The position numbers and the translations under genes were made by a program. Of a stretch of DNA of 64,000 nt, positions 27,851-64,000 are shown in pieces; within the stretch, counting starts at the first letter, position 1, and every line of letters starts with the position of its first letter. The stretch is from Convolutriloba macropyga (lineage: Eukaryota). The stretch is taken from contig NC_134477.1 in the NCBI RefSeq assembly GCF_964194025.1, positions 26,970,001 to 27,034,000 of the forward strand. The letters are read 5' to 3'. The notes under the pieces are model-generated. The model was not told where the DNA came from. It did not search any database and was given only the letters and a program-made list of their open reading frames with translations.

Positions 27851-28149
27851 TTTTTTAAAACTCAATTTTTTGGTTAAAAAGCTATTTTTTGTGATGCATA
27901 TCATTGTTATATATAAAAACATATCAATGTATACCTCATAATATACTCACAACTTCACGTGTAATAGAATTTGTTTTTATGAACTCACAAGTTGTACAAT
28001 AAAACAACAAAATTTAAAAATGTTGAATGATGGAATATAACAAAAAAAAATCAGTCGAAAAAGCATGGACTTATAACAGTACGAGTAAAACATAATAGGC
28101 GTAGAACATATCAGTATTTACTCCTAAATGTCCAATAATCATAGAACGC

Positions 28150-29760
28150 AGCCAGTCTCATTTAAATATTCACAGTAATAACCTCTAACAGACAGCCACC
28201 GTCCTCCAAACAACCAGACACCTCAGTATCCCTAAACTATCACCTCCAGTGTCCTTCCAACGGATCTAGCCTTCAGTGCATTAGAAGCACGGACATCCAA
28301 AATTCCGCCACTGAGCTCCAGTATTTTGACCCAAACTGACCACCAGAGTGCTTCAGCCAACCGCACGTTTCAGTAACCATCAAAAATCATATCCAATATT
28401 CCGTCATCTGAACCAAATTAAAGTACATCAATAGTACTGAGATGTAACAGGCAGCCACCGCGCTCCAGTACTGACGGCAACGGCCACGGCTTTGCTCCAG
28501 ACAACCAGCCAACTGAGTAGCACCTAGAAATCAACTCTATTGTATCGACAATGGCCCCAGCCCCAAGTAAATCAGCAGTACAAACCTCCAACAGCCTGCT
28601 TCGATGATCTGGCCAACTGAACGCCTCAGCATCCTGTAGAACTAATATCTTTTGTTTCGCCAAAAGAACTATAGCCTCCAGTAAATCAGCATTATTGATC
28701 TCCAACGTGATCCGGTACTTACGGCAAACAGCCCGTCACCGTGCTCCTCCGGCTAACTGGACACATCAGTAGCCCTCAGAAACCACGTCTACTGTACTGC
28801 CATAGGGAACCCCAATACATCAGCAGTACTGTCCTCCAACAGCTCACAATCCTGCTGCGCCTCACGGGTCGCCCAGAAGTTCTTAACAATCATCTCCAGT
28901 GGGCCGCATACTGAACCAGCGACCCATACATCTACAGTATTGAACCCCAACAGTCCACAACTGTGTTCCAGCACCAACCTCAACTGTCAGCACCATGCTA
29001 CAGTCAACGGGTCAACTCATTAGCCCTCAACAGTCTTCTCCAGTGTTCTGCCAACTAAACCAGCCTCCAGTACGTCAGCAGTACGGACATCCATCAGTCA
29101 AAAACAGTGCTCCAGTGCTGACCTTAAGAACCCCGCAACAGTGTTCTTGCGAACGGGCTCCTGACTAGCGCTAAAAAATCAGCTCTGAATTTCAGCAACC
29201 AAGATTTCAAGACCAGATTCGAGTACATCATCTGTAATGACCTCCAAATGCTCGCCAATTTGCTCCAGTTCCGACCGTAAACAGCCCGAGACCGTACTGC
29301 AGTCAACGAGACACCTCAGTAGCCCTTAATAATTATCTCCATTGTTCACGCAAACAGAACCAGTCTCCAGTACATCTTTAGTACGGACCAATAACAGCCT
29401 TCACAATGATCCAGTGTTGACCACAAACCGTGTTGCAGCCAACAGGCACCTCAAAAGCACTCAGTAATCACCTTTAGTGTTCCACCAACGAAGCGAAACA
29501 AGCCAAGGTTCAGTACATGAGCAGTGCTGACCTGAAACCGCCAAGCATTGTGTTTTCGTCAAACTGAAAACACAGTAGACCTTCGAAATCATCTCTCTGG
29601 TTCTTCAAAGCCAACCACTAACCAAAACATCACCAGAACTGGCCTCCAAAAGACATCCACAGTGCTGTAAATAACCGACACCCAGTAGCCCCAGTAACCA
29701 CCTACTGTGTTCCATCAACAAAAGCGGCCTCCATTATCGGCAGTTATGCGCTCTAGCAGA
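28150..29760. repeat. Degenerate C/A-rich tandem array (~100-150-bp units)
   Basis: Recurring ACACCTCAGTAGCCC...CTCCAGT...ACGGACATCCA...CCAGTG-TGACC blocks near 28219, 28761, 29014, 29310 and 29678; strong C-over-G skew. Confidence 0.7.
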
Positions 29761-29899
29761 GTGCTAACGAACTCAAGTTTCCAGACTTCACAGCAACATT
29801 ATCTTTTCAATGCCAGTCTTCATATTAGTGAACTCCTTTCACATTCCTTTATTCCTAAACTTGAACCAATTGACTGTTTTGCTGGCCTATAAAGTTAAA

Positions 29900-30370
29900 A
29901 ATATTTGACCTCTGAAATCCAAACCACCTTATTCCTGGAATGTTAAACCAATTGATATCTAAAATATTATAGATTTTGACCTCTAATAGGTAAAATCACT
30001 TGATCTCTAATAGCTCAAACCACTCGACTTCTAATAGTTCAAATTATCATTTGGTTCCGAAAGGTCAAACAACTTGACCTCTATTACGTCAACTCACTTG
30101 AATTCTAAAGGGTCAAACCACTTGACCTCTGAGAAGTTAAATAATTTGATGATCCTGATCTTAAAGAACTCGTCAAACCCTTTGATCTCTTAAGTACAAA
30201 TCACTTGACGTATAATAGATGAAAATAATTGATTTTCAAAAGCGCTTAAACCATTTGTTTTCTAAGAAGTCAAGCCATTCAACGTTTTCAAATTGGTTGA
30301 CCTTGTGAATTCAAATCAAGTTACCTCAGTAGGTTGAAAGTTCCCTGCATTTGACCATCAACTGACCTCC
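29900..30370. repeat. Degenerate ~24-bp tandem repeat (GGTCAAACCACTTGACCTCTAATA)
   Basis: TCAAACCACTTGACCTCT-like cores recur at roughly 24-bp period. Confidence 0.75.
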
Positions 30371-40784: not shown

Positions 40785-43700
40785 GTAGCTCTTTATCGCA
40801 ATGCTGCCCGCTGACACGCCAGATGTCCTTTAGCAACAGTCTGACACTAAGGTTGAATGGGATTGAACCACAAGACCAATGAATACATTGGACTCTAGGC
40901 TCAGTACCAATCGTTGTGTTAAAGACTTAGTTACTCTCATTTCAATCCACACACATGCGAAGATTCCTCCTTAGATGACGGTATCCTTTTTTGGTTCGTA
41001 AACTGCGGTAACTAATCAATTTGATAAGCCAGATTTGATTTATTGCTTAAAAACCTAATAAGCTTGAACCCACCTAGATGAAGAAGATCCACAATTCCTT
41101 CGATCTTTTGAGAGCCCTCTCAGGGGACTCCACAGAATCTAGATGATCGTCTATGTAAAAATAGGACGGCTTTAGTTGCTTCCGGGTTTTGATCTATGTT
41201 GTCTCGGGCGGTGCGTTGCAATGCATAATTAGCGCAAGTGGATGAGTCTTTAGACCTAAAAATATGGCGCGTATTTTGATACACAACATTTGTTGTGGCG
41301 TCCTCCCACAACAAAAAAGGGCAGTAATGGCTGGTCGCAGTCAGGGATACCAACCTGCTGAAACATACCCTCGAAATCTGCGGACACGGCAAATTGATAT
41401 TGACGAAACTTGAGTAGTACATGGATTAAGTTCTGGAACAAGTCGGGGCTATTGAGCAAAAATTTTTCCAAAGAGGTTCCGTAGAACTTTGCTGCGAATT
41501 TATTACCCTATTCACTTTCCCAGGTTTGATTGGGTTGATTATGTGATAATGTGGTAGATACCATTCTTCATCTGACCATTGCTCTACCACGTGAACGTCA
41601 GGAACTGTTATTAGATAACATTTTTCAAGGTCCTCACTTTTGTTTTTTCTTAACTATTTTTTAGTGTTGTGTCCTTTGAGAGCCGCTTCTTGAGAGGGTT
41701 AGCTTGCATCAGTGACTAAAAGTAGTTATTGGGGAGCTGAATGTTGTCATCAGCCAACAACACACCAACATCCTGTCTTTGACTTTTACGAAACGTTGTT
41801 GTTTCAAGTATTTCATGAGCCCGAGTATCGGCTGAAGATCGTGGGTCAACCTGCTTGGACGCGCCGTAAAATTCCATACCATACCATGGCTTAACTTGAA
41901 AATCAGGATCATAATCCGAATAAATACTGAAACACGTCGAGGTTAAACTTAACCTTAACGGGAGTGGGCTACTTAGAACCCAATCTATGGGCAATTGAAA
42001 GGCGAACGGTGAGCATTTTTTGTCGGCTGAAAAGCACTCTGATGGGTGATTGCATGGTAGACATCCTGTCCAAGTATCATTTTAATTTCTCCATAGCTAT
42101 CTCTTACTGGATCTAGGACAGCAAGATGTGGGTAAGTTTCTTGCATGGACTTAAAGTCAATGATGTCGGACCCTACGTTTAATGTTTCCCTCGCATAGCG
42201 ACGCACAGTAACATCTTCGAAGTCTTAATCTAATTAAGGTGTTATAGTGAATTGGACCACTTTGGTGTCAATTAGTTCTATATTTATACACTTGAGGGTC
42301 AATTTTATTGCGGTAACTTGTAAAATGAGTCTAGCTGCGAGACTATCGGGCATCCAAGAGTTACTGCAAGCGGTATCACAAAAAACCAACGTTGCGATAT
42401 TGGTTTCCTGAAAAATTATTTATTGGCAAATCTGTCAACTGAAAGAGGATTTGAAATCCGTGACGGAAGACAAAGTGGTCAATTCTCTTAATTGCTGTTG
42501 ACTGGAAGATGGTTAACTACTACCTATACCTGACTTCAAAGTATTGATGTTGTTAGTTGAGGATTCAGCCGGAAAAACCCTTTCAACTCCGTGGAACAAG
42601 GTGTTATAGGAGCTGCTGCAGCCATCTTGTCTACATTTACGGGACTTGAGTTCTTTCAGAACATGTGTTTATCACTCAAACAAGAGAAACAGAGCTTTCC
42701 CTCGGCTATAACCTTTGCTCGCTGAGTGGATGTCTTTTCTTTAAATACAGGACATTCCAATAACCAGTCTTGAAAGACCAGAGGAGTAGGTTTCTCCCAA
42801 TGCTTTTTTGACAAAAAGAGTGACCATGACTCTTTCATTATTGGTGGTAGTTTGTGTACGGCAGTGTTGAGAAATGAAGTACTTTTTGAATCGGAGTCAT
42901 ATGAGAGCAATTTAAAGATCCCGACAAAACTTGAAAGGCACCCCAAATAATTATTGATGTCATTGCTATTGTGCATCATCTATGGTGAAAAGCTGTTTAT
43001 TTTATCCGAATGGGCACTGACAACCGCCTGTGATTGGATAGAAATTTACGTTCTAAGGTTTTCAGTGCGTCTTTGAACATTGCGCCGCAGAAGGCGTTAG
43101 CTGTTTTAGCTTTTCCAACAGCGAATGTCTTAAAGTATGTCAATTTTACATCATCATTTAAAGACAGAGTAATTTGCGCTTTTGAATTGACAATATCCAT
43201 TGTGCCACTGTATGGGATTTCGACTGTATTATAACAACTTCCATTCGGGTAGCGGGTCATTCCTCCTGCTGATAAGGGCTAAGGTTTGCGTTCTCCGCTG
43301 CTGGCACCAGAGGCGTGGAATGAGGGGGACCACCGCAGCACAACGGCATTGGAGCGGTATTCCCGTATATTGAAGGTATAACGAGCTTGACAAAAGATGG
43401 CGCGATGTTAGTTGTTGTACTGAAGGGGTTAACGGGGATACTACAGGTTGTTGCGTGGTTACTATTAGCAGTTTTTTTGGGATTTCAGAAGGCGGGGTTA
43501 GCATTGCTTGGTGGTATTGTCAGTTGAACATTGCTGAGAACGGCTGCATTTTTTGTCACAAGACTGGCGTTTGGGGGGCTGTTCTGAGAAAAACGCCACA
43601 AGTTTAAATCAAGGTTACAATAAAGGGACCGGTTTGGTGCGGTGGGAAACGGCTACAGGGGGCTACATGGGAATATAAAGGGTTTTGCTGGTGGATTGTT

Positions 43701-44600
43701 ACAGGTTTGGATTGCAGGGAGAATTATCGGAAGTTGGCACTGAACTAATTGACTTCGCGGGATTAGGGGGCGGCTTGTTCAAGTGTGGCTTTGAAGATGG
43801 AGATCAGATGTGCGGGTGGTGGGCACTAGGGAGTTGTGCTGCGTTTAGATTGTTACTTTGAGGTGGATTCTGTTGTTTTGTTAAAATGAGAGTTGAGCAG
43901 ATGCAACTAACCAGGCCTACTAGAACTTTTCTGTCTCAAGTGTACAGCGGATTGATTTTTTATTTGATTTGCCTTTGGGTTTGTTGAAAAATCAGATACA
44001 CATTTTTACCGATGAGTGCGATGGTGCCATAACAGTTGTCGGGGGCCGGAGAGGTAACTGAAGGGGTGGGAGTGAAGCATTTCGTACGTTGGCTGGCACT
44101 TGTTTCACTGGGTTCAGAACACCACAACATGAGGGATTATATGCATGGTCGGTCCTTCCATCACTGGCAAACTCTTGCAGTTGAGCATGGAGGTATTCCA
44201 AATAAAACGGCCTTTTCTAAACAATAGAATTTACAAATCTTGGCCGTGCGTACTGAGATAGCGTTTCAAGATGATTTAAATTACCGCCAACAATACCTGA
44301 GTTTTCTGTAGGATTACTATTGGCAGTATATTGAATGGGATGGTCGGCGGTTACTGAGCCAGGACGAGGAAAGTTTAACTCACTTGCGGCAGTCAAGGAA
44401 TTACTGTATGTAACCGAATATACCAATTCCTATACAAGTTCCCAGCCTCTATCTGATCCTTTAGGTAAATTTAGTTCTTGTGAATAACAACAAGGAACGA
44501 TGAGCCATCAGTTTGGCCTCATATAATTTAACTGCGGCAACACGTTGGGGATGATCTTCCTACAACTTTTGAAATATCAGCTGCTACATTTTTATTTCAA
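40785..44600 (-). mobile_element. Degraded BEL/Pao element, gag - protease - RT
   Basis: Minus strand: DDVKLTYFKTFAVGKAK, DALKTLERKF and VHKLPP (Pao gag); CFSCLSDKHMF knuckle; VFCDTAC protease (~42370); WYLPHY, NSPDLFQNL...FAVSADFEGMFQQV, SSTCANYAL and FYIDD RT motifs; LLLKDIWRVSGQH at ~40800. Many stops and frameshifts. Confidence 0.9.
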
Positions 44601-46810: not shown

Positions 46811-47483
46811 GCTCTGATTTGGAATTGTTGTAACAGTGATAGTGACCATACATGGGTCGATATCTGTTAGAAACAACAAAATGATTAAGATGATTACCTC
46901 TTTTTTCTTGTGTTTCAGCAAACCTGTGAAACAATTATGCCTCTGCGACATTTTTGGTAGTGCTCACTTGTTAGGTCATCATGTTAACAACAACGACTAA
47001 GATATCTTACAAATTAGTCAACAAAAATTTATACTGGGAAATTTTGTACAGTTGAAAAGAATTGGGTCATTATTGAAATTTGCGAGGGTTCTTTGTTTGT
47101 TGGTGGTTCTGTGAGCTATTAAGTTTTTCGTTAATTCAAAAATCTTTCCAAAATATGGGTGAGAAAATTTACTTTAAATTTTTCTCCTGTCATTCCTGAA
47201 TAGATCCAAAACTGTGACATAGTTAACAAAAGCACTTAGTTAAAATTCGCAAAACTTTTCTCAACAGAAACGCTTTGAATGATGACCTACGTTTCCAGAT
47301 CAATTCACAGGCCGAACTCATAATTCAAAACGGTACAAAATTACGTCTTCATATTTTAGCGTCTATGAAAATTTTTGTTATATAACTTTCAAAGATTGAG
47401 AATCTTACACAATGCACTTTTTGAAGAAGGCCTAAGAAGGACTAGAAACATATAGATTAAATTATATACAAACAATAATATAA

Positions 47484-47920
47484 TATAACATCCCCTTCCT
47501 TAGGCAACCTTCGGGCAAATATTTCATCAGTTAACCTTGAGTTTATCTTTAAACTTATCTGTTTTAATTTACGTATTAGAATAGCTAAATCGTTCATGAT
47601 TGGTAGGAGTGTAAAATCTTGTGAGAGCTTGATAACTGCGTTGGCCTAATTGTTTCCAACTTTCGCTTAACGATATTATAATCTGTAAATCCAGAATCAA
47701 GCAAACTTCTTGAGAACTCTAAATTTGTGTCATCGACTTTGAACCTAAATTAATACATTTTTGTGAAGCGAAATTTTGTTAAATTCTCAGATCGGAAAAT
47801 ATCAATAGGTAAGATCAGTTCCACAGTAATAAAATTACACAACTTAAACTAAAAAAAACAACCCAATTGAGAACCCCGCTTTTAACGCGTTGTTTTCATA
47901 TAATAATCCGGGTTGTTACA
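47484..47920 (+). repeat. 5' LTR of the Gypsy element
   Basis: T(A)TAACATCCC...GGGTTGTTACA; direct repeat of 56487-56922 with about 16 substitutions and 2 indels by eye. Confidence 0.95.
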
Positions 47921-47921
47921 T

Positions 47922-47939
47922 TGTTGACAGGTTCGGGAT
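47922..47939 (+). promoter_or_regulatory. Degenerate primer-binding site (possibly tRNA-Leu)
   Basis: TGTTGACAGGTTCGGGAT sits 1 nt after the LTR and matches 13/18 of TGGTGTCAGGAGTGGGAT, the recalled complement of a tRNA-Leu 3' end. Confidence 0.4.
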
Positions 47940-48398: not shown

Positions 48399-49422
48399 AT
48401 GAGGTTTGATGCCGATGCGGCGCTAGAAGCAAAACTACTTCTACCAGAGCCTTTCAATGGTACCAGTGATATTCAAGCTTATATAACACAATTCGAACTT
48501 CTAAGTTCGCTCCAAAATTGGCATAAAAAAGCATTCAATACTGATGGCACTCCACAAGTAGATGATGCTGGTTAGCAAGTCTGCATTGATAAAAGGCACA
48601 CGGTTTTTTTTGCGATTACGAGGCAGTGCCATAGAATTTTATCAGTCGTTAGACGACGCTACTAAAAATGACCATACAGAACTTACGAAACATTTTTTGC
48701 GTCAATATCAGGAACCACCAGAGTTTGTTCGCTCTTCGCATGCTAAGCGGTTGCAAGGTAAATCCGGAAAAGTCAGTGAGTTTTTAGCAGAGCTCAAAAT
48801 TTTAGCGAACAAAGCTTACCCACAGGATACGCAGCCAATAAGAGACCACATTGCGCTCCAATCTTTCATTGAAGGCTTGCACAATGTTCTTGTTCGGGTT
48901 GAACTCCGTAAAAACAAGCCCGCCGCCATCAACTTAGCTCTCGAGTCTGCTCTACATTTCAACGCCATTTACCGTCTTGACGCTCGAACAAACGAAACCC
49001 CTAGTTCCTCGACTGCTTTAAATACTATCGAGGCCCTATCACATAAAGTAGACAAACTAATGGCGGGACAACTGAATTATCAGTCGCGTTCTCAACCATT
49101 TAACAGAAAATCGAACCGCAAAGGCAGCTCAACGCATAAATTGTCTCCGTTATCCAAACGCACATCTCCTAATTACTCTTGAAGTCCCTCGTTAAATAGT
49201 GAGCAACAACGGTCCTCTTCTCCTCGACAAGCGTTCACACATAAATCTCGAAGTTGTTCAGTAAGCAACGACAGAAAAGTTAGATTCGCTGGACCGACCA
49301 TCTGTATTGGTTGCAACAAAAAAGGTCATACCAAAAACGTTTGCAAAAACTGCTGGAACTGTGGTTCCTCTCAACATCAACGCGGAAACTGTCCAGAATC
49401 TCAATCATACTCTAAACGATAG
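48399..49422 (+). pseudogene. gag: gag pseudogene with two CCHC zinc knuckles
   Basis: MRFDADAALEAKLLLPEPFNG...YITQFE..W; capsid-like RLQGKSGKVSEFLAELKILANKAYP...QSFIEGL; CIGCNKKGHTKNVC and CWNCGSSQHQRGNC at 49303-49392. Internal stops and a frameshift. Confidence 0.9.
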
Positions 49423-49499
49423 CTCTTCTTATTGCTTTGAAATTTTCTTGAGAGTGTTTGTTCTCCACTTTTAATAACCCATGGCCTACAATGAACGTA

Positions 49500-52400
49500 T
49501 ATTTGGCATACAGTCGCTTCTTTCCAAAGTACTAATCCCTTGTTGCCCGCCTTGATTCATTCGGGTGCGGCAATTAGTGTAATACGCACTGATGTTTTTG
49601 GAAAGCTCGGCAATTCTAGCCAATCGTTTAAACTGGAAGCATCTGATATCCAGGCATCTGCTATTAACGGCACAACGCTCAGGTTTAAGGGTATGTGCTT
49701 GCTTCCATGCCGTTGGTTTAAAAGTGGACCAATTTTTTTCTTTCAAGTTTTACATTTGTACAGATTTAAGCGCTCCCTGTGTTGTCGGTTTCGACCTTTT
49801 ACACAAGGAAAAATGTGCAGTTGATTTTTGTCAAGGATTCTGGATGTGGGCAACGCAGTGCTGGAATGTGTGAGCCCACTAGCTCAATGGTACGAGAGAA
49901 ATTCGCAAACAGCACAAATTGCGCTTTGCTCTGTATCTGATCGTTTTCTAATACCAGCCCGTAGTGAAGCCCATGTTAAATGTAGGCTAAAATCTGATCA
50001 TGCGCATAAGTTTTTAAGCAGTACGCGTACTTCGTCGACGCGGCTGTCGGTTTGGTAGAGCCCTACGTGGGTTTCACCAGTTTTAACTCTGTACTAATTG
50101 CTTCATCTCTTATTGCATTGGATGGAAATGAAATTCACTTGAGAGTATTGAACCCTACTTGCAACTCCGTGACCGTATTTCCATCTCAAACAATGGCGCA
50201 AGTTTCGCATTTCAATGAGAATGAGCTGCAAGCTGTAGGTTTTAATGCTGTCAACGTTTCATCAGCCAACAAACTGATGAAAACATTTGAATCTTTGTTC
50301 TGTGCACTTTCTGAAGAACAGCAGAAAGACGTGCTTAAGCTGCTCAAACTGTACAAAGATGTGTTTTCCCGTGACAAATGGGACTTATGTTCAAGAGATT
50401 TACATAAACTGCGAATTCAGTTGAAGGAAAACGCTCAACCTTGTCGCGTCCCCTACAGGGTTATGAATCCTTCAAAGCGGAGGGATCTGAAAGAAAAGAT
50501 TACCAAACTTAGAGAAATGGATCTTATTGCTCCCACTCATTCCGAATGGGTGGCTCCAACGGTGTTAGTTCCGAAGAGTTACGGTTCGTGTCGATTGGTA
50601 ATTGACTATCGCAAACTGAATGCGCAAACCGTCAAAACATCCTGGCCTCTGCAACGTATTTCAGACATCCTGAACAACCTTGAGGAAAGCATTTTCTTCT
50701 CCAGTAGTGATCTTTGCAGTGGTTTTCATCAAATGGAAATTGAAGAGGAAGACCAACATTTAACTTCCTTTAAAACGGCATTCGCATTGTATCAATGGAA
50801 AAAGATGCCCATGGGCCTTTGCAGTGCACCTGGAGCGTTTCAAAGGTGAATGGAAATTGTCCTCTCAGGACTGATCTTTGAAATTGTTTTGGTATACCTT
50901 GATGACATCATAGCTTTTGGTCGTTCTTTTGAGGAGCATAATAACCGTCTTCAATTAGTGTTCAGACGCATTGGGGACGCAAATTTTAAAATTTCTCGCG
51001 CTAAATGTTCCTTGTTCCAAACAAAACTCGTTTTTTTGGTCATGTGTTTTCTGCTGAGGGTATACAAACTGATCCTGCAAAGATTGAAGCCGTCGAAAAA
51101 GTAACCTATACCCCAAACAATCCGTCAGTTAAGACCATTTATGGGAGTTGTTGGGTTTTATCGCAAATTTGTTTTGAAATTTGGCACTTTTGCCTATCTT
51201 CTTTATCGATCAATGAATAAAACAACGAAATTCCAGTGGACCCCGGAATGCCAACAAGCTTTTGAAAAATTAAAGGGAGCGCTTGTTTCCGCCCCAATTT
51301 AAGGTTTTCCAAATGAGAGCGATCAATTTGTCCTCTGCACTGACGCATCGATCACGGGTATAGGAGCTGTTCTCTCACAGAAACAGAAAACAAGGGAAAA
51401 AGTAATTGCCTATGCTAACAAGACACTGCAAAAAGGTCAGCGAAACTACTCCGCTACGAAACGTGAACTGTACGCTGTTGTGTTTTTCAGCTCATATTTC
51501 AAGGAGTTTCTTTTGGACAAACGTTCCAAATCAAAACAGACCATCGCGCGTTGGTTTGGCATTACTCATTCAAGGATCCGGATGCAATAGTGGCACGTTG
51601 GCTAGAGAAATTGAGTATGTTCAATTTTGAAATCGTACATCGTCCGGGAAAAACAATTGCAAATGCTGATGCCCCTTTCCAGATTAACTCCATTGAAGTT
51701 GTCTGCTACATCAGTAACTCCAAGCCGCCTTTCGTCACCTTTCTTTGCACAAATTCAAGATAAAGACAAAGCAATATCAACAGTTAAAGCCCGGTGTCGT
51801 TCTGGAGAAAAACCATCGAGAGCAACGATGTTTGGTCGATCATGCATTTTGCAATGTTACTGGCAGCAATTTGAGTCGTTACAAATTATTGACGGCGTTC
51901 TCTATCGTCTATTTCAAAAGGCTTAAGTATCAACTCAGTTTCAACAGTGTTGTGTCACAATAAATCAAGTGAAGGATATCCTTCTGCAATTGCATGATTC
52001 GCCTGCTTCAGGTCATCTGGGTAACAAGAAAACTCTGGACAGAGTTTGCCAGTGTTTCTACTGGCCAGGACTAAACAAATGATGTTGATTCCTGGTTCTC
52101 AGGGTGCGGAACTTGTCAGAAGCGAAAAAACTCAAAACAGTCACATCAACCGGAGATGCAAATTTGTTCGTTTCAAAAACCCTTTCTCTGTGTATCCGTT
52201 GATATCCTTGGACCGTTACCAGAGAGGCGGTTAAACGAAAAGCTATACAAAGACATCCTAATGATTGGAGATCATTTCACTCGCTGGTTCGAGGCAACGC
52301 CGCTTCAAAATATTGAGGCTGAGACAATCTAAAGCGCCTTTTTAGACAGCTGGGTCACCAGGTTTGGTGTTCCTGAGTATATTCACAGTGACGACGGATC

Positions 52401-53327
52401 ACAGTTTACATCAAAACTCTTCGCAGACATGTGCAATAGGCTGCTTTTGACGCCTTCCAGATCTACTCCTTACCACCCACAAGGAAAAGCCAAGGTCGAG
52501 CGCATTAATCGCACCTTGGAAGATGGCCTAGCAAAGTATTGAGAAGAGCGGCACCTAGTTTGGTCTGTTCATTTGCAATCTTTCATGGTGGCGTACCGGT
52601 CGGCAGTCCACGAATCAAACGGTCAATCGATTGTTTTTCGAGAGAAATGCGCATGCCCGTCGATATCTAATGTCCGACGTTGCCACCCCACATGTTGGTC
52701 ACAGAGATTACGTTTTCCAGCGCTTAGTAGAAGCTTCTTCAATATTTGAGTCAGTAATTGAGAAAGATTGCTGGGAAATGCGGCGACAAAAAGCCATTTT
52801 CGACAAAAGCGTAGTCCTTCATATAAGGAGGGCGATCTGGTGCTTATACATTCACCAATTTTTACTCAAGGACAGACCCCGAAGCTTAAAAGTTTCTGTT
52901 CAGGGCCCCATTGCATTACAAAGGTGATAAAGTAAATCAAATTGTTCTGAGTGATGTAAAAATTCACAAGCAGCAGATCGCCCACTGCGATCGTATTAAA
53001 CCTTATGCGACTCCTGATCAGCGACTCCGCAAAAAGCGCGCGAACCATCAAAATATTAAAAAGACGCACCAACCAGTCCCGGTAGATGATAATGATCTTG
53101 TATTCCTTGATCTGACGGACTCCGACGTCCCGACCCAACATGCTGCACAGGCTCCAAGAGAACCTGCTAGCTCTTCCATTACGTCGCCATCAAATTTTTC
53201 ACCAAATCAAAATAGTTGTAGTTCGCCGATAATTCCTCAAAGATCACATAGAGCTGCCGCTGTTCACGCACGCCATCCAGAGTTTTTTCGATTGGCATAT
53301 TTTGATTCAGAGAGTGATATTGAATAA
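49500..53327 (+). pseudogene. pol: pol pseudogene (protease, RT, RNase H, integrase)
   Basis: ALIHSGAAISVI (protease, catalytic Asp appears as His); RLVIDYRKLN, DLCSGFHQ, MPMGLCSAPGAFQR and YLDD; CTDASITGIGAVLSQ and NYSATKREL; HDSPASGHLG...YWPG; DHFTRW, IHSDDGSQF and YHPQGKAKVER; GP(H) motif near 52900. Multiple stops and frameshifts. Confidence 0.95.
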
Positions 53328-55200
53328 TGTGTTTAGACGCGTCGGTTGACACAATTTTTTTGTGGTTGAGCTTGTTAACAACTGGGTCTTCTACTTTAGT
53401 GGGGTATAATATCGAACAAGTCCTCACCACAAAAATCTTCTCGCTTCTTCCGAGTGAACAGTGCACTCCTGTTAAACTGAGCACGAAGAACATTTCTTCC
53501 GGTGGCTTCATACTCCACGCGCCTGAGGTTGACATTCAAATGAGTTTTTGCATGTTTCAAGCTTCCTACGCTGTAACTGGCCTAGCTCATTCGGCCCGAT
53601 TTGACGACTCCGTTTACCTGAAGAAATAATCGCGTTTGGTTCCCACATATTATGCATTAGAAACATGGGTTTGTAGGGCCAATTGGAGCGGTCGCAGTTT
53701 CAAGCTCCCAATTTTTGATGATGAAAAATTCAAAATGACAGAAGAAGATCTTTTTTTTGAAGGACAGTCATATAAACCAGGCAAATTCAAGGTTTTTGAC
53801 TACTCCTACTCTTTCCTACGTGGTGGAAAAAAAGGTGGAATTTGCTCCGCTTGGCCTGTTGACTGAGTAACACCAGGGGGATCCAAAATTGATGCCTCGG
53901 GTGTCATCAGTGCAAAACTGACTATCGGAAAAGTTGTTGCTACACTAGACAAAACCAGTAATCCCTGGTCTTTAGTCATGACTACCCTAACGAAAGATTA
54001 ACGAGCAGTTTTCCGGGATCTGACTTCCAGCATGATTCAATCACTTACTTACCGCATTTCTACGGTCAATGTGAGATCAAATCAATTTTCGAGTTCTCAC
54101 CTGATCAACTAGGGCTTCACATCTCGTCGGCTGACTCCATGTACTTGAGTGGAAAAACAGCCTCAACGGATAATTCTCGTGTGTTTTACATAGAGCTCCT
54201 TAACACAACTGTAACCGTCTGCTCGTATAAAGTTCGTCAGACAACCTACTCTGTTGTTCATTTTGTAATAGCACCGATAACTGAGCACATTCCCGAAATT
54301 GATTATAACACCGATACCATAACAAACCTCGTATCTGGCACAAAAATTGAGTTTGTTCACGTCAATGCGCATCTTTCGCCTCAACGTATTGTCCAACGAT
54401 AATCCAAATCTTTTTCTAGGATCAGGGTCAATAGTCCGCAAACATGCAGAAAAAGTGGGTGCTGTTTTATTTGTGCATAAATGCATACAAGTTGAAGCCG
54501 GAATTGCAGACTTTCCGTACTGCACAGAGGAGGTTCCTGTTTTACTGGGTAACGAAACTCAAATTCGCTTCATGAACCCTATTACACAGGTTGTTTACCC
54601 AAACTATACGCTAACTGCTTGCGATCCCATAGCGGCATATATGTATTGCACTTTGGAAGGCATTTGGATGCACTACGGGGATGACTACCCAATCGCACGT
54701 CCTACTGAGTCTCTGAGTGTTTTCAGTCACTTAGATTTCAGTGAAAAATTACCCTCTACACACCGCTAGCCTCTTTTCATACCAAAATTTGAGACAAAGC
54801 GCTAAATCTCGAATACTGAAATACTCACCACGTACCATTTTGGGAAGAGAGGTTTACCTTGGTCCCAATAGTCAATATTCCCATCCAGGTTTCATACACT
54901 TCAACCCTAGTATTTCCGGCGAGTTGGAAGGTTTTGTGGCGTGGAAGTAATTGATTGATTCGCTTTCGGTTGCAAGTGGTGGCTGGTATTACGCCGAAAG
55001 GTGTACTGCAATTACTTTGACAGTTTTTGCACTACTTCTGTTGATCATATATGTCTCGAAGCTCATTTTTGCTCTATGATTGCTTTCTCATGGCGTGCCG
55101 TTTTGGACTGTTTTCAAGCTTCTCAACCCAATTGCGCCTTTCACACAAATGCTCCAGAATCATCTTTGGAGCTTTAATACATCCGCGCCTGCAAATCATA
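53327..55200 (+). pseudogene. env: env pseudogene resembling chuvirus/Monjiviricetes-type fusion glycoprotein
   Basis: Signal-peptide-like N-terminus, then VGYN...FSLL----C; CSYKVRQT; TKIEFVH; GAVLFVHKCIQVE...CTEEVPV...FMNPITQVV...CDPIAAYMY...GIW; C-terminal hydrophobic segment (CTAITLTVFALLLLIIYVSKLIFAL, ~55000-55075); several N-X-S/T sites. 3' end approximate. Confidence 0.75.
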
Positions 55201-55450
55201 ACGAGGATCATTTTTGAGTGAGACCATTGAACCTGTTGATAATCGGACGCTTGTGGTTGATTTAATTTATCCGTCGAATAATCTAGCATATACGTGCTAT
55301 ACAACAAAAATTTAAGGCAAAGAAATGGTTCTCTCTTTCCGCGAAAAAATTCTATTAAACGAATACTTGACAAAAAAAATTTTGACTTTGTTGCATCTTT
55401 CAACCCTCATGAAAAACAAGCTTGAAATTTTTAATAACTGCGTGTTTCAG

Positions 55451-56450
55451 ATATCAAATGGCAACGATGATGTTAGTGTTTCGCCTGCATCTCCAGGCCC
55501 TGAAATCCTCCTCGACCCCGACCTTCTCTCTGGTGCTTCTTCGCCAGTTCTCACCCTCAATGACAATCCTATGGAATCTAATCTCAATAAGGGAGTCACT
55601 GGCAACTGGGCCAGTGATCAGTCCTTGGAGTTCAGGGAGAGTCTCGCAAATGGCGGACAGAAATCTGAGCCTCCCTCCTCTGCTTTTTCGGACGAGATGA
55701 CGGTTTTTTTGCCCGAAGTCTGCTGCAAAAATTCCTGTTGTTCAGCCTATATCTTAATCCACCGCCCCTACGGTCTCGTCCAGTAGTCCTCAAGAGGACC
55801 GATCTCAAAGACAAACCATGGGTCCTCCTCGGAATGCTCCTATTCGAGTGAACGGAATGGCCTACTCGCGGAGCCTGAACGCTGTGTTCCGGGTCGTCGA
55901 GTTCTATCGCAATGGTAGAATTCGACTTCAAGACCCGTACAATGCACGACGCAGACCGCTTTTGTACCCGATTGACCTCGTTGCGGTTCCCTTGGACAAC
56001 GTTGCGGAGCACCGCGATCTTCGGGATCAAATCCAACGTTTACGTCGTTCTCGAGATGCACATGAACGTGATCTCTACGACGCCACTGAGTAACTAGATA
56101 AATCAAAAATTCGCGTGTCCAAGTTGAATCAAATGTTGGAGGACTCCCGCACTGCCAACAGTTTGCTGTCCGCGGAGGTTGTCAATCTCGAAAAAAGGCA
56201 ACCGAAGCGCCCGAAGGCTCCTAGAGTCCAGAATGCAGGAGTCAACACGGACTCTGGGTCTTTGCACGAGCAGTGCTCCACCACTTGCCGTCATCTAAGA
56301 GCCCTCCAACGAGATGTTCGTTCCCTGCGGTGCGAAGTCCTTCGCGGAGCTCACAGTTCAGCCAACAAAACCAAAAAACTTAAGAGAAAACCCCGCTCGC
56401 GTTCTTCGAGCTCTTCCACGTCCTCTTTCTCTGGCTCTGCGACAGAGTAG
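55451..56450 (+). pseudogene. Orphan fourth ORF of the Gypsy element (~330 codons, interrupted)
   Basis: ORFs 55818-56093 and 56115-56450 share a frame, split by one TAA. The upstream acidic Ser/Pro-rich part is in another frame (inferred frameshift near 55700). The region is GC-richer than its flanks and has coiled-coil-like and basic segments. Confidence 0.6.
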
Positions 56451-56475: not shown

Positions 56476-56486
56476 AAGCGGGTTGA
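56476..56486 (+). promoter_or_regulatory. Degenerate polypurine tract
   Basis: AAGCGGGTTGA directly before the TG of the 3' LTR. Confidence 0.5.
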
Positions 56487-56922
56487 TGTAGCACCCCCCT
56501 TCCCTAGGCAACCTTCGGGCAAATATTTCATCAGTTGACCTTGAGTTTATCTTTAAGCTTATCTGTTTTATTTTACTTATTAGAATAGCTAATTCGTTCA
56601 TGATTGGTAGGAGTGTAAAATCTTGTGAGAGCTTGATAACTGCGTTGGCCTAATTGTTTCCAACTTTCGCTTAACGATATTATAATCTGTAAATCCAGAA
56701 TCAAGCAAACTTCTTGAGAACTCTAAATTTGTGTCATCGACTTTGAACCTAAATTAATACATTTTTGTGAAGCGAAATTTTGTTAAATTCTCAGATCGGA
56801 AAATATCAATAGGTGAGATCAGTTCCACAGTAATAAAATTACAAAACTTAAACTAAAAAACAACCCAATTGCGAATCCCGTTTTTAACGCAGTGTTTTCA
56901 TATAATAATCCGGGTTGTTACA
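56487..56922 (+). repeat. 3' LTR of the Gypsy element
   Basis: TGTAGCACCCC...GGGTTGTTACA, followed by the TSD ATAA. Confidence 0.95.
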
Positions 56923-57579
56923 ATAATAACAATATAATAATATAATAAGAATGATAACTATAATAATCAGTAAAACCAATCTGGAAAAACCCAATTAAAT
57001 CCGCCAGTACATAAAACCAAGCTTGTCTACACCATACATTGCTCTGCTGAAAACAAAGAAGAGCTTTTGCAATTGAAGTTAAAAGGTTCTTGTAAAATGG
57101 AACAACCCATTTTTGTTTTAAAGGGCTTTTATACAACCAAAACAGTTGTTTAAAATCTTGAGTACATATTTTCTCTTCTATTAAACTGGAAAAAAAAATC
57201 AGCTGAAAGTTAATGTGTTATGGCGATGAATTGCTAATGTTCTCAACTAAAATCGTTACTGCAGCTCAGGGTTGAAAGTTTCATTGCGAAACCAGCAAAA
57301 ATCCACTTCAAATGAGTCCAACTTTTTCGTAACTGTTGCTCCCAAACTGAGATGGTTCAAATCGAAAAATGCCGTCTAATGATTATACTGTCCTGATAAA
57401 GCCAAACAACAGCCAGCCTTTTGCGTCGTTTTTCTCAAGAGCAAGAAAAATTGATTTTCTCGTGGGCTGTAATGAAGAAGTGCAAGACCTTTTTGGAGTT
57501 TGACAACCTCATGCGGTCTCGGGAAAGAGCCCAGACTCTTTAAATGCCTCCTGTTTGTTTGTATCGATAAGTAGTCACC

Positions 57580-62518: not shown

Positions 62519-64000
62519 TCCTCCGACCCGGAAGATGTCGAAAAAATTGGTACAAGTTTTACAAGTGGGCGGACGAATGGACCGGTCGAAGTACGTAAAA
62601 CGGTGGAGAGCGCGACGCCGTTGGAGCCGTAACTGAGTTCCGCCATGCAACCGGTAGAGTAGTAACCACTAGGGTTGGTTTACTCAACTACACAAACCAA
62701 GTCACCGGTCTTACAGTGTTGCTCGGCAGGTGTCTGCCACTTAGAACGTCGGTTCAGCGTCGGTACGTACTCTCTGATCCAGCGGGACCAAATAGCGTTA
62801 GCGTACGATTGCGCACGGGCGTAACGTTTACGATAGTCAAAATCTTTATTGCCGACAAGAGACCGGATACTGGTAGAGTAATCTCCTAAAAGAAAGTAGT
62901 TGAGTGTTATAGCGTTCAAATTGCCCGGATCAGCGCATGCGGGTGTTACAGGACGCGAATTGAGAGCACGCTTCACGAGACAGAAGGTAGTATGCTGCTC
63001 CTCATCCGTGAAGTGATGCGTCCTAAAAATAGTATAGTACAATACGCGCTTGAAGCTCGTACCAACCTCTCCCAGATACCACACTGATATGTTGCTGGAT
63101 TGAACTTCAACTTTATTCTTTTGTGAGCGAGCTTAGCTGCAATGTTGACAACGTTCCACTTTTCAACACTTTCCCGGAGTTTTTTCTCCGTTCCAATGAA
63201 GTTAGTTTTACTGGCCGACCAAATCCGAGTAGTAACACAGGTGAAGAGGAAACCCAACCTCTTCTCAGTAGTACGGCGGACAGCAACAGAAAACGGCCCA
63301 AAGTAGTCAACGCCGGCATTCGTGAAGGGAGGTGACCGGTAAGCAAGTCTGTCGTTAGGTAATTCAGACATGATTGGTTGCATAGCTGGAGCTTGCAATT
63401 TTCGTCATCTCAGGCAGTGTGCTTTGATGGAACGCAAAGATGATCTTAGTTTAACTTATTTTTGTTCAGGAAGATCCCTTCTTTCGGCTTCACTGGATTC
63501 TCTTGCACCAAGTACTGGAGATGACGCTGGGTTTCGTAAAACTCAGCAGGCTCAATACTGCTACCATCATCGAGGTTACGGTAGCCGGCATGCTTTTGCA
63601 GAAGTCGGAAAACGTATGCGGCATTATGCAGGTACTTTTGATATGAACAAAGTTTGTCAAATGGGAAAACGACAGAACACAGAACGGGAGTTGTCTATTT
63701 TTTAGCAGCTGTAGCCAAAGATACAGTGTCTTCTATAAAGACTGCTTTGTTGACAACAAGTTTGATGTTGTTTATTGTGCATTTGTTCGGTACGAACGGG
63801 AAATGTGAATTACTTAAGAAATGCGGATCTTTGACCCAACTGCTTAGTTGCAAAGCTTCAACAAACAATCTACGCGCTCCAATGTCAGTTGGGTTATCAT
63901 CTTTTGCGACTTGTCTGCATTCGTTAACGTTTGTATACTCCAAAATTTCGCAAACACGGATTGCAACAAATATTGGTTGATTTTTATTAGAGTTATTTCA
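62519..64000 (-). mobile_element. BEL/Pao pol 3' part (RNase H end, integrase, DUF5641), truncated by the window edge
   Basis: DNPTDIGAR; PPFTNAGVDYFGPF...FLFTCVTTR; GIWERLVR; LNSRPVT; WSRWIREYVPTLNRRSKW...GDLVCVVE. Confidence 0.92.

Follow-up and report, generated by a model that had tools for sequence, protein, structure and literature searches.

How a glycoprotein gene resembling those of chuviruses came to lie behind the integrase of a Ty3/Gypsy retrotransposon, and what it does there, is the question raised by a locus of the acoel Convolutriloba macropyga. The window analysed here is a stretch of 64,000 nucleotides (contig NC_134477.1, positions 26,970,001 to 27,034,000), and window coordinates count from its first letter. 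An earlier note, made from these letters alone, had read the gene as a chuvirus-type fusion glycoprotein serving as env, independently captured from a negative-strand RNA virus. The first part of this reading is borne out by our analysis, the second is not. In the window lies an older, defunct copy of a Ty3/Gypsy element with four genes (gag, pol, env, and an additional one, ORF4) of the kind called "HSV/gB-type errantivirus". Taken as a whole, the data are probably best explained by a four-gene gB-type errantivirus with spliced env and ORF4 RNAs, infectious transfer, and an env gene of old standing.

Anatomy of the element in the window

The element lies on the plus strand between a 5′ LTR (47484..47920) and a 3′ LTR (56487..56922), which pair with 96.5% identity over 429 aligned bases. 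The 4-mer ATAA flanks it as target site duplication (TSD) on the left (47480..47483) and on the right (56923..56926). The flank is AT-rich, and a 4-bp TSD is the rule in the family (28 of the 33 testable copies of the young sister family described below). Paired LTRs and a TSD enclosing a glycoprotein gene that follows the integrase, as claimed in the earlier note, are thus confirmed.

The 5′ LTR has a splice-donor-like site near 47809 and is followed by a primer-binding site (PBS) for tRNA-Leu (47922..47939), which is mismatched at 4 of its 18 positions, the common form in this family. All four genes are broken. The gag region (48411..49422) has a Retrotrans_gag match, and a zinc knuckle is found in the gag of a young relative. 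In the pol region (49481..53327), reverse transcriptase (RT), RNase H, and integrase follow each other in Gypsy order; a protease-like region was recognized by a motif read by eye, without a Pfam match. The env region (53327..55315), with an acceptor-like site at about 53328–53336, encodes a glycoprotein which we assign below to the class III gB/chuvirus type on the basis of profile and model comparisons. Between env and the 3′ LTR lies ORF4 (about 55451..56450), with an acceptor-like site just upstream; this gene was absent from the earlier account of the element. A short purine-rich tract directly before the 3′ LTR (56476..56486) is probably a degenerate polypurine tract, to judge from its position.

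When aligned to a natural relative, the window env falls into five stretches separated by four frame changes (near 53985, 54397, 54770, and 55210), with five in-frame stops and about 24 codons missing near 54397. The signal-peptide-to-TM layout described for this gene is present in the young relative, but the single ORF attributed to the window copy dissolves into these fragments, and the gene ends at 55315 rather than at 55200. The glycoprotein motifs listed in the earlier note are legible in the window translations.

The assignment to Ty3/Gypsy (Metaviridae) also holds. Pfam places the gag, RT, RNase H, and integrase pieces of the window in Gypsy order, and the pol of the young family shows the series RVT_1, RT_RNaseH, Integrase_H2C2, rve. 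Among PDB sequences, the best match of pol is Ty3-G Gag-Pol (E 2.5e-110) with 373 bits, against 133 bits for the next Gag-Pol entry, and a BEL-type domain was not found in pol by Pfam. The RT is thus closest to Ty3/Gypsy and not to BEL/Pao, copia, or Retroviridae, in an element with the pol order, paired LTRs, TSD, and tRNA PBS of Metaviridae.

Other parts of the window have features of their own. Raised GC and a strong GC skew of opposite sign mark the regions 28000–30000 and 43000–44000, which are possibly other repeats. Broken ORFs on the minus strand at 62680–63404 have motifs resembling a BEL/Pao integrase, which we take to belong to a separate old element.

A young sister family, its fourth gene, and its primer-binding site

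The host genome (1.18 Gb) contains a young sister family with about 74% DNA identity to the window copy. A genome search for intact copies, as suggested in the earlier note, returned at least 37 env matches that are full-length and ≥99% identical, of which 35 have no stop; the count is a lower bound, with 65 of 1677 candidates scored. The layout of the young family is gag, pol, env, and ORF4 with 338, 1289, 684, and 330 residues. Of the copies behind 52 LTR–PBS junctions, 40 were analysed. They include every copy of the tRNA-copy type (15; see below), the single variant, and, from the 35 mismatched copies other than that of the window, a further 24. Fourteen of the 40 have all four ORFs open. 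An open env is present in 30, the complete set of near-full-length copies; the glycoprotein gene is therefore not a peculiarity of the window copy. The other 10 copies are devoid of most or all of env, nine by internal deletion and one without an internal match. The existence of such insertions shows that env is not needed in cis for insertion.

The LTR pairs of the young family are mostly 99–100% identical. The number of independent insertions is smaller than the number of copies, since L141 to L143, with a common TSD and common private variants, represent a single duplicated insertion, and L161 and L162 form a tandem pair. The young family has recently multiplied via tRNA-Leu-primed reverse transcription and integration with 4-bp TSDs.

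We considered whether the internally deleted copies are retrocopies of spliced RNA and rejected this, as their junctions differ from copy to copy and two follow tRNA read-through copying. A database protein of 1030 residues (P0013), in which RT is joined to the C-terminal part of this env, probably stems from an internally deleted copy. Related loci were not found in viral contigs, and a single contig of 2.2 kb (L166), too small to reveal its surroundings, was found among metagenome contigs.

More distant relatives were assigned to subfamilies. Subfamily B has the same four-gene order and is 73% identical to subfamily A in RT and 66% in env; for the damaged subfamily C, these values are 61% and 44%. 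The window copy is 78% (RT) and 83% (env) identical to subfamily A. The right ends of the LTRs differ, being the canonical CA in the window copy (47915–47920), TA in the young family (L021), and GA in subfamily B (L073).

ORF4 is a conserved gene. The window version is 67–69% identical to that of the young family over the main part, relatives in other assemblies share 41–42%, and the protein of subfamily B shares 26% with the same order of parts. NCBI lists an identical ORF4 protein for Convolutriloba macropyga. In the structure model, a disordered N-terminus is followed by a small beta domain (about residues 133–181, pLDDT 55–70), a coiled coil (187–250, pLDDT >90), a short helix, and a basic, serine-rich tail. 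Pfam returned coiled-coil matches only, all below the cut-offs, PDB sequences likewise coiled coils only (E ≥ 0.015), and the ESM Atlas no usable match. Matches to the long helix dominated the search by fold (best Z 7.0, none with Z ≥ 8), which hardly probed the beta domain, and homologue searches retrieved only members of the same element group; these null results are not proof of a new fold. Extra ORFs are known from LTR elements in general (PMC5408684, in the part that treats them). Our guess is that ORF4 might be an oligomeric accessory protein that binds RNA or Gag.

The PBS occurs in two states. Among the 52 junctions, 36 (the window included) have the form with four mismatches in 18 positions; in another 15 the PBS is perfectly complementary to the 3′ end of the host tRNA-Leu, and the remaining one is a variant. 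A fit of the mismatched form to another tRNA was rejected, because it had no match to a tRNA gene at ≤1 mismatch, compared to 169 matches for the tRNA-Leu 3′ end. Among the shared variants of the 30 near-full-length copies, small as their informative number is, none of 26 is exclusive to the tRNA-copy type and five link both types, from which we conclude that the perfect PBS arose repeatedly. This pattern fits primer copying of the retrovirus type. Although synonymous sites are close to saturation between them, the window copy and the young family have the mismatched form in common, which suggests that it is under selection. A U5–PBS hairpin as the cause of its retention was discarded, since folding is no better than that of shuffled sequences (z 0.10–0.34).

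Some further observations concern the PBS and its tRNA. In two deleted copies (L130, L135), copying of the primer tRNA did not stop after the customary 18 bases but ran on into the T-arm, and was followed by a jump to the 3′ part of the element. Subfamily B (L073, L075, L077, L083) has an imperfect tRNA-Leu PBS of another form, with 13 matching bases followed by mismatches. The tRNA-Leu 3′-end motif also occurs in long tandem arrays (C11:45168000-45219000 and C1:80691000-80726000), and tRNA-Leu genes were confirmed in the C1 array by ARAGORN.

Class, expression, and origin of the envelope glycoprotein

When stops are replaced by X, frame 1 of the window env region matches PF24664 (Monjiviricetes_fusion) over residues 374–454 with E 4.2e-08 and 32 bits, the curated cut-off being 27 bits. 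It is the sole family at E ≤ 0.1 for this region, and frames 2 and 3 have no match. The env of the young family (P0004) reaches E 4.7e-20 and 71.5 bits, restricted to residues 294–528, while typical relatives score 180–315 bits. P0004 has a hydrophobic N-terminus, one TM segment near 582–612, 13 cysteines, and six N-glycosylation sequons; a furin-type RxxR site was not found. Baculo_F was not matched in the Pfam search of the window frames or of the young relative, in agreement with the earlier note, so that neither hallmark of an F-type env is present.

The structure model of env (monomer, based on a 45-row alignment) has a mean pLDDT of 80.2 and a pTM of 0.44, and shows beta-rich domains with a long central helix. 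A Foldseek search of a viral library placed glycoproteins of chu-like, xinmo-, and qin-related viruses on top (E 6.6e-31 to 1e-25), of which the best share 14–16% identity with env. Against PDB, every one among the matches listed is a herpesvirus gB (best E 9.6e-12); the env profile has no match among PDB sequences. Global TM-scores are low (0.2–0.45) for both viral and PDB matches, which may reflect a different domain arrangement in the monomer model. The PF24664 score together with the fold matches to viral glycoproteins and to gB argues that env functions in the manner of class III fusogens such as gB and the chuvirus glycoproteins, unlike baculovirus F. In the sister family, an env that has a signal and a TM segment and is similar to both herpes gB and chuvirus G thus stands beside a Gypsy pol within one LTR pair, intact and in many copies.

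This gene has been maintained. Between the window and a young copy, pN is 0.10 and pS 0.71 for env, with dN/dS of about 0.05 (618 codons, Nei–Gojobori, in-frame stretches), compared to 0.07 for gag (338 codons), 0.10 for pol (670 of 1289 codons used), and 0.08 for ORF4 (307 codons; 0.25 against another copy), all rough values since pS is close to saturation, of which only "far below 1" is firm. Near-identical copies of subfamily B give 0.43–0.78 from few changes, as expected from decay after insertion. The dN/dS check proposed in the earlier note thus indicates purifying selection on env, and the codon comparisons show the same for ORF4, both diverging together with pol.

Signals for splicing were found at the expected places. 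In one young copy, 12 of 255 YAG sites have an ATG within one base, and three of these 12 are T-rich (≥6 T in the preceding 10 bases), namely the env start, the ORF4 start, and one in the leader. The LTR of this young copy carries the consensus donor AG/GTAAGA, 87 bases after TATAAA. A window-like copy (L002) has an ATG directly preceded by an acceptor where the window copy has suffered damage. In subfamily B, an acceptor-like site lies upstream of ORF4 but not of env, whose start overlaps the pol stop; a matching donor was not found after the TATA box of its LTR. We infer from these signals that env and ORF4 are probably expressed from spliced RNAs. Public contigs of unrecorded type from four runs contain no GT-AG joint, which speaks neither way on expression.

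We propose that env would be translated from a spliced subgenomic RNA in which the donor of the LTR is joined to the acceptor immediately ahead of the env start codon. With its N-terminal hydrophobic signal, one C-terminal TM segment, and predicted class III fold, the protein would trimerise on budding particles and fuse them with neighbouring cells, and the element could thus move from somatic cells to stem or germ cells. ORF4 would come from a second spliced RNA and might be an accessory oligomeric protein associated with RNA or membranes. The model of infection from soma to germline is taken from the Drosophila gypsy/ZAM errantiviruses, as outlined by Chary & Hayashi (eLife 2026, PMC13524379), and the infectivity of the acoel element is a prediction.

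The env could instead be a real, selected glycoprotein that makes no infectious particles, serving local cell–cell fusion or blocking the entry of related elements while the element is copied intracellularly. Copies without env have integrated with LTRs and TSDs, P0004 is devoid of an RxxR cleavage site, and the main text of PMC13524379 calls the entry mechanism of gB-type elements unknown. However, copies devoid of env can still be moved in trans, the constraint on env is as strong as that on gag and pol, its layout of signal, ectodomain, and TM segment has been kept, and the same text notes that conservation of the furin site is not universal among gB-type envs. We therefore hold this alternative to be rather unlikely and prefer infectious transfer. 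A further-reaching version of the latter would see in the element a "complex" four-gene Gypsy retrovirus that is spreading now in the acoel with a spliced gB-type fusogen and ORF4, infecting stem cells from their neighbours. Its mismatched PBS would be kept because tRNA fragments silence offspring with a perfect PBS, and its env would represent a branch of class III fusogens that is very deep and specific to Xenacoelomorpha. This combination is speculative, and we would give it only a small chance of being correct in full.

As to origin, the lineage might have captured env independently and relatively recently from a chuvirus or a related negative-strand RNA virus. Glycoproteins of chu-like viruses and xinmoviruses are the best matches in the viral library, far above herpes gB; however, that library consists of viral proteins only, so that a viral top match was forced, and identity to the best of them is only 14–16%. 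The host genome has at least two other PF24664 families, 21–22% identical to the window-type env, one of them beside a very different integrase (26%), which would allow for several acquisitions. A profile search with env collected 598 proteins at E ≤ 0.001, in which distant full-length relatives share 14–18% identity; none of the 20 distant clusters looked up has a named member. A quick phylogeny with 34 rows unites the 13 close envs in a clade with support 100, at the end of a stem as long as 4.85 substitutions per site; this tree is midpoint-rooted with long-branch warnings, offers no trustworthy sister to the clade, and has no named row outside it. Identities of RT and env fall together across the subfamilies, and the RT/env incongruence for which the earlier note proposed a test is not seen in these values. 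In the main text of PMC13524379, moreover, env genes of this type are described from many phyla, and their origin is argued to be ancient. Low identity, the lack of a resolvable donor, and the co-divergence of RT and env do not support a recent capture from a sampled virus, which we consider improbable. The independent capture of the earlier note is not upheld in this form; an older one by the lineage of the element may have occurred. The env was, as these comparisons suggest, acquired long ago and inherited with pol.

Additional env-like genes were encountered. One multi-copy PF24664 family of the host (L167, C15:43418500-43428499; frame of about 898 aa) has a Gypsy-type integrase 3.8 kb upstream and another ORF without assigned family downstream. 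A second one (L169, C10:8005000-8014999; frame of about 769 aa) has a PAN-domain ORF upstream, and pol was not found within 6 kb before its env frame. Weak Baculo_F matches (27–28 bits, barely over the cut-off) occur at C4:61113555-61113893, C2235:8574-8912, and C3:34798093-34798779; the host genome may thus also hold elements with F-type env. A protein of 2855 aa from another organism (P0132) joins a PF24664 env to protease, RT, RNase H, and integrase, with the env part upstream, and thus shows the order env–pol.

A last alternative would see in the glycoprotein gene a stray endogenous viral sequence without relation to the element, a piece of BEL/Pao that lies by chance in one Gypsy copy, or an error of assembly. 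The relevant passages of Dezordi et al. (2023, PMC10084718) describe associations of Jingchuvirales glycoproteins with Gypsy as mostly fragmentary, with no clear Gypsy capture. For the acoel element, however, this alternative has next to no probability and is refuted by the copy survey. The order gag–pol–env inside one LTR pair is repeated in dozens of scattered copies and also in subfamily B despite its divergence, coverage by public contigs is even over all four ORFs, and pol has no BEL-type Pfam domain.

Comparison with known systems

An env-carrying element from an acoel was not found among the titles retrieved by searches of the open-access literature, nor was a fourth ORF in errantiviruses. 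The host acoel can be kept in laboratory culture, and its growth and budding draw on stem cells. With a very young family of many copies in such a host, the role of a gB-type env could be studied in live tissue. Small but concrete leads on accessory genes and on control by tRNA fragments outside mammals are provided by the selected ORF4 and by the two states of the PBS.

A chuvirus-type fusogen in a Gypsy element is already in print, as the earlier note had thought possible. The main text of Chary & Hayashi (PMC13524379) reports 114 arthropod elements in which gypsy pol stands beside a Chuviridae-like glycoprotein, describes a gB-type env for elements of cnidarians, ctenophores, and tunicates, and argues that env-carrying Gypsy elements are pre-Cambrian. 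Relative to that text, the novelty lies in the host phylum, the selected ORF4, and the two-state PBS, together with the acceptor-like sites ahead of env and ORF4. Acoels belong to Xenacoelomorpha, a phylum missing from the survey as presented there, and a member from this phylum fills a gap between cnidarians and ctenophores on one side and other bilaterians on the other. The acoel element shares with the HSV/gB-type errantiviruses of PMC13524379 the layout LTR–gag–pol–env, a Gypsy pol, a Chuviridae- and gB-like env with signal and TM segment, many near-identical copies, and a tRNA primer. It differs by a conserved fourth ORF after env, of which none is described in the main text, although extra ORFs may be present in the published elements without being mentioned, and its env has only 14–18% identity to the nearest full-length relatives outside its own clade.

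The mosquito BEL/Pao elements of Dezordi et al. (2020, PMC7642597, as cited in PMC13524379) carry an env from the same glycoprotein family, whereas the host element here is Gypsy. Drosophila gypsy/ZAM errantiviruses likewise have three retroviral genes within LTRs, but their env is F-type, while that of the acoel element has neither a Baculo_F match nor a furin-type site.

For the PBS, the closest parallel is provided by ETn/MusD/IAP elements of the mouse, in the relevant sections of Cullen & Schorn (2020, PMC7472051). There too, a mismatched PBS is the most frequent form, and copies with a perfect one occur dispersed among their close relatives, which is the expectation if the tRNA is copied and inherited, and an explanation by tRNA fragments is described for these mouse ERVs; yeast Ty3, according to the same source, strictly inherits its own PBS. 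In the acoel, this mouse-like pattern is found in an invertebrate Gypsy element.
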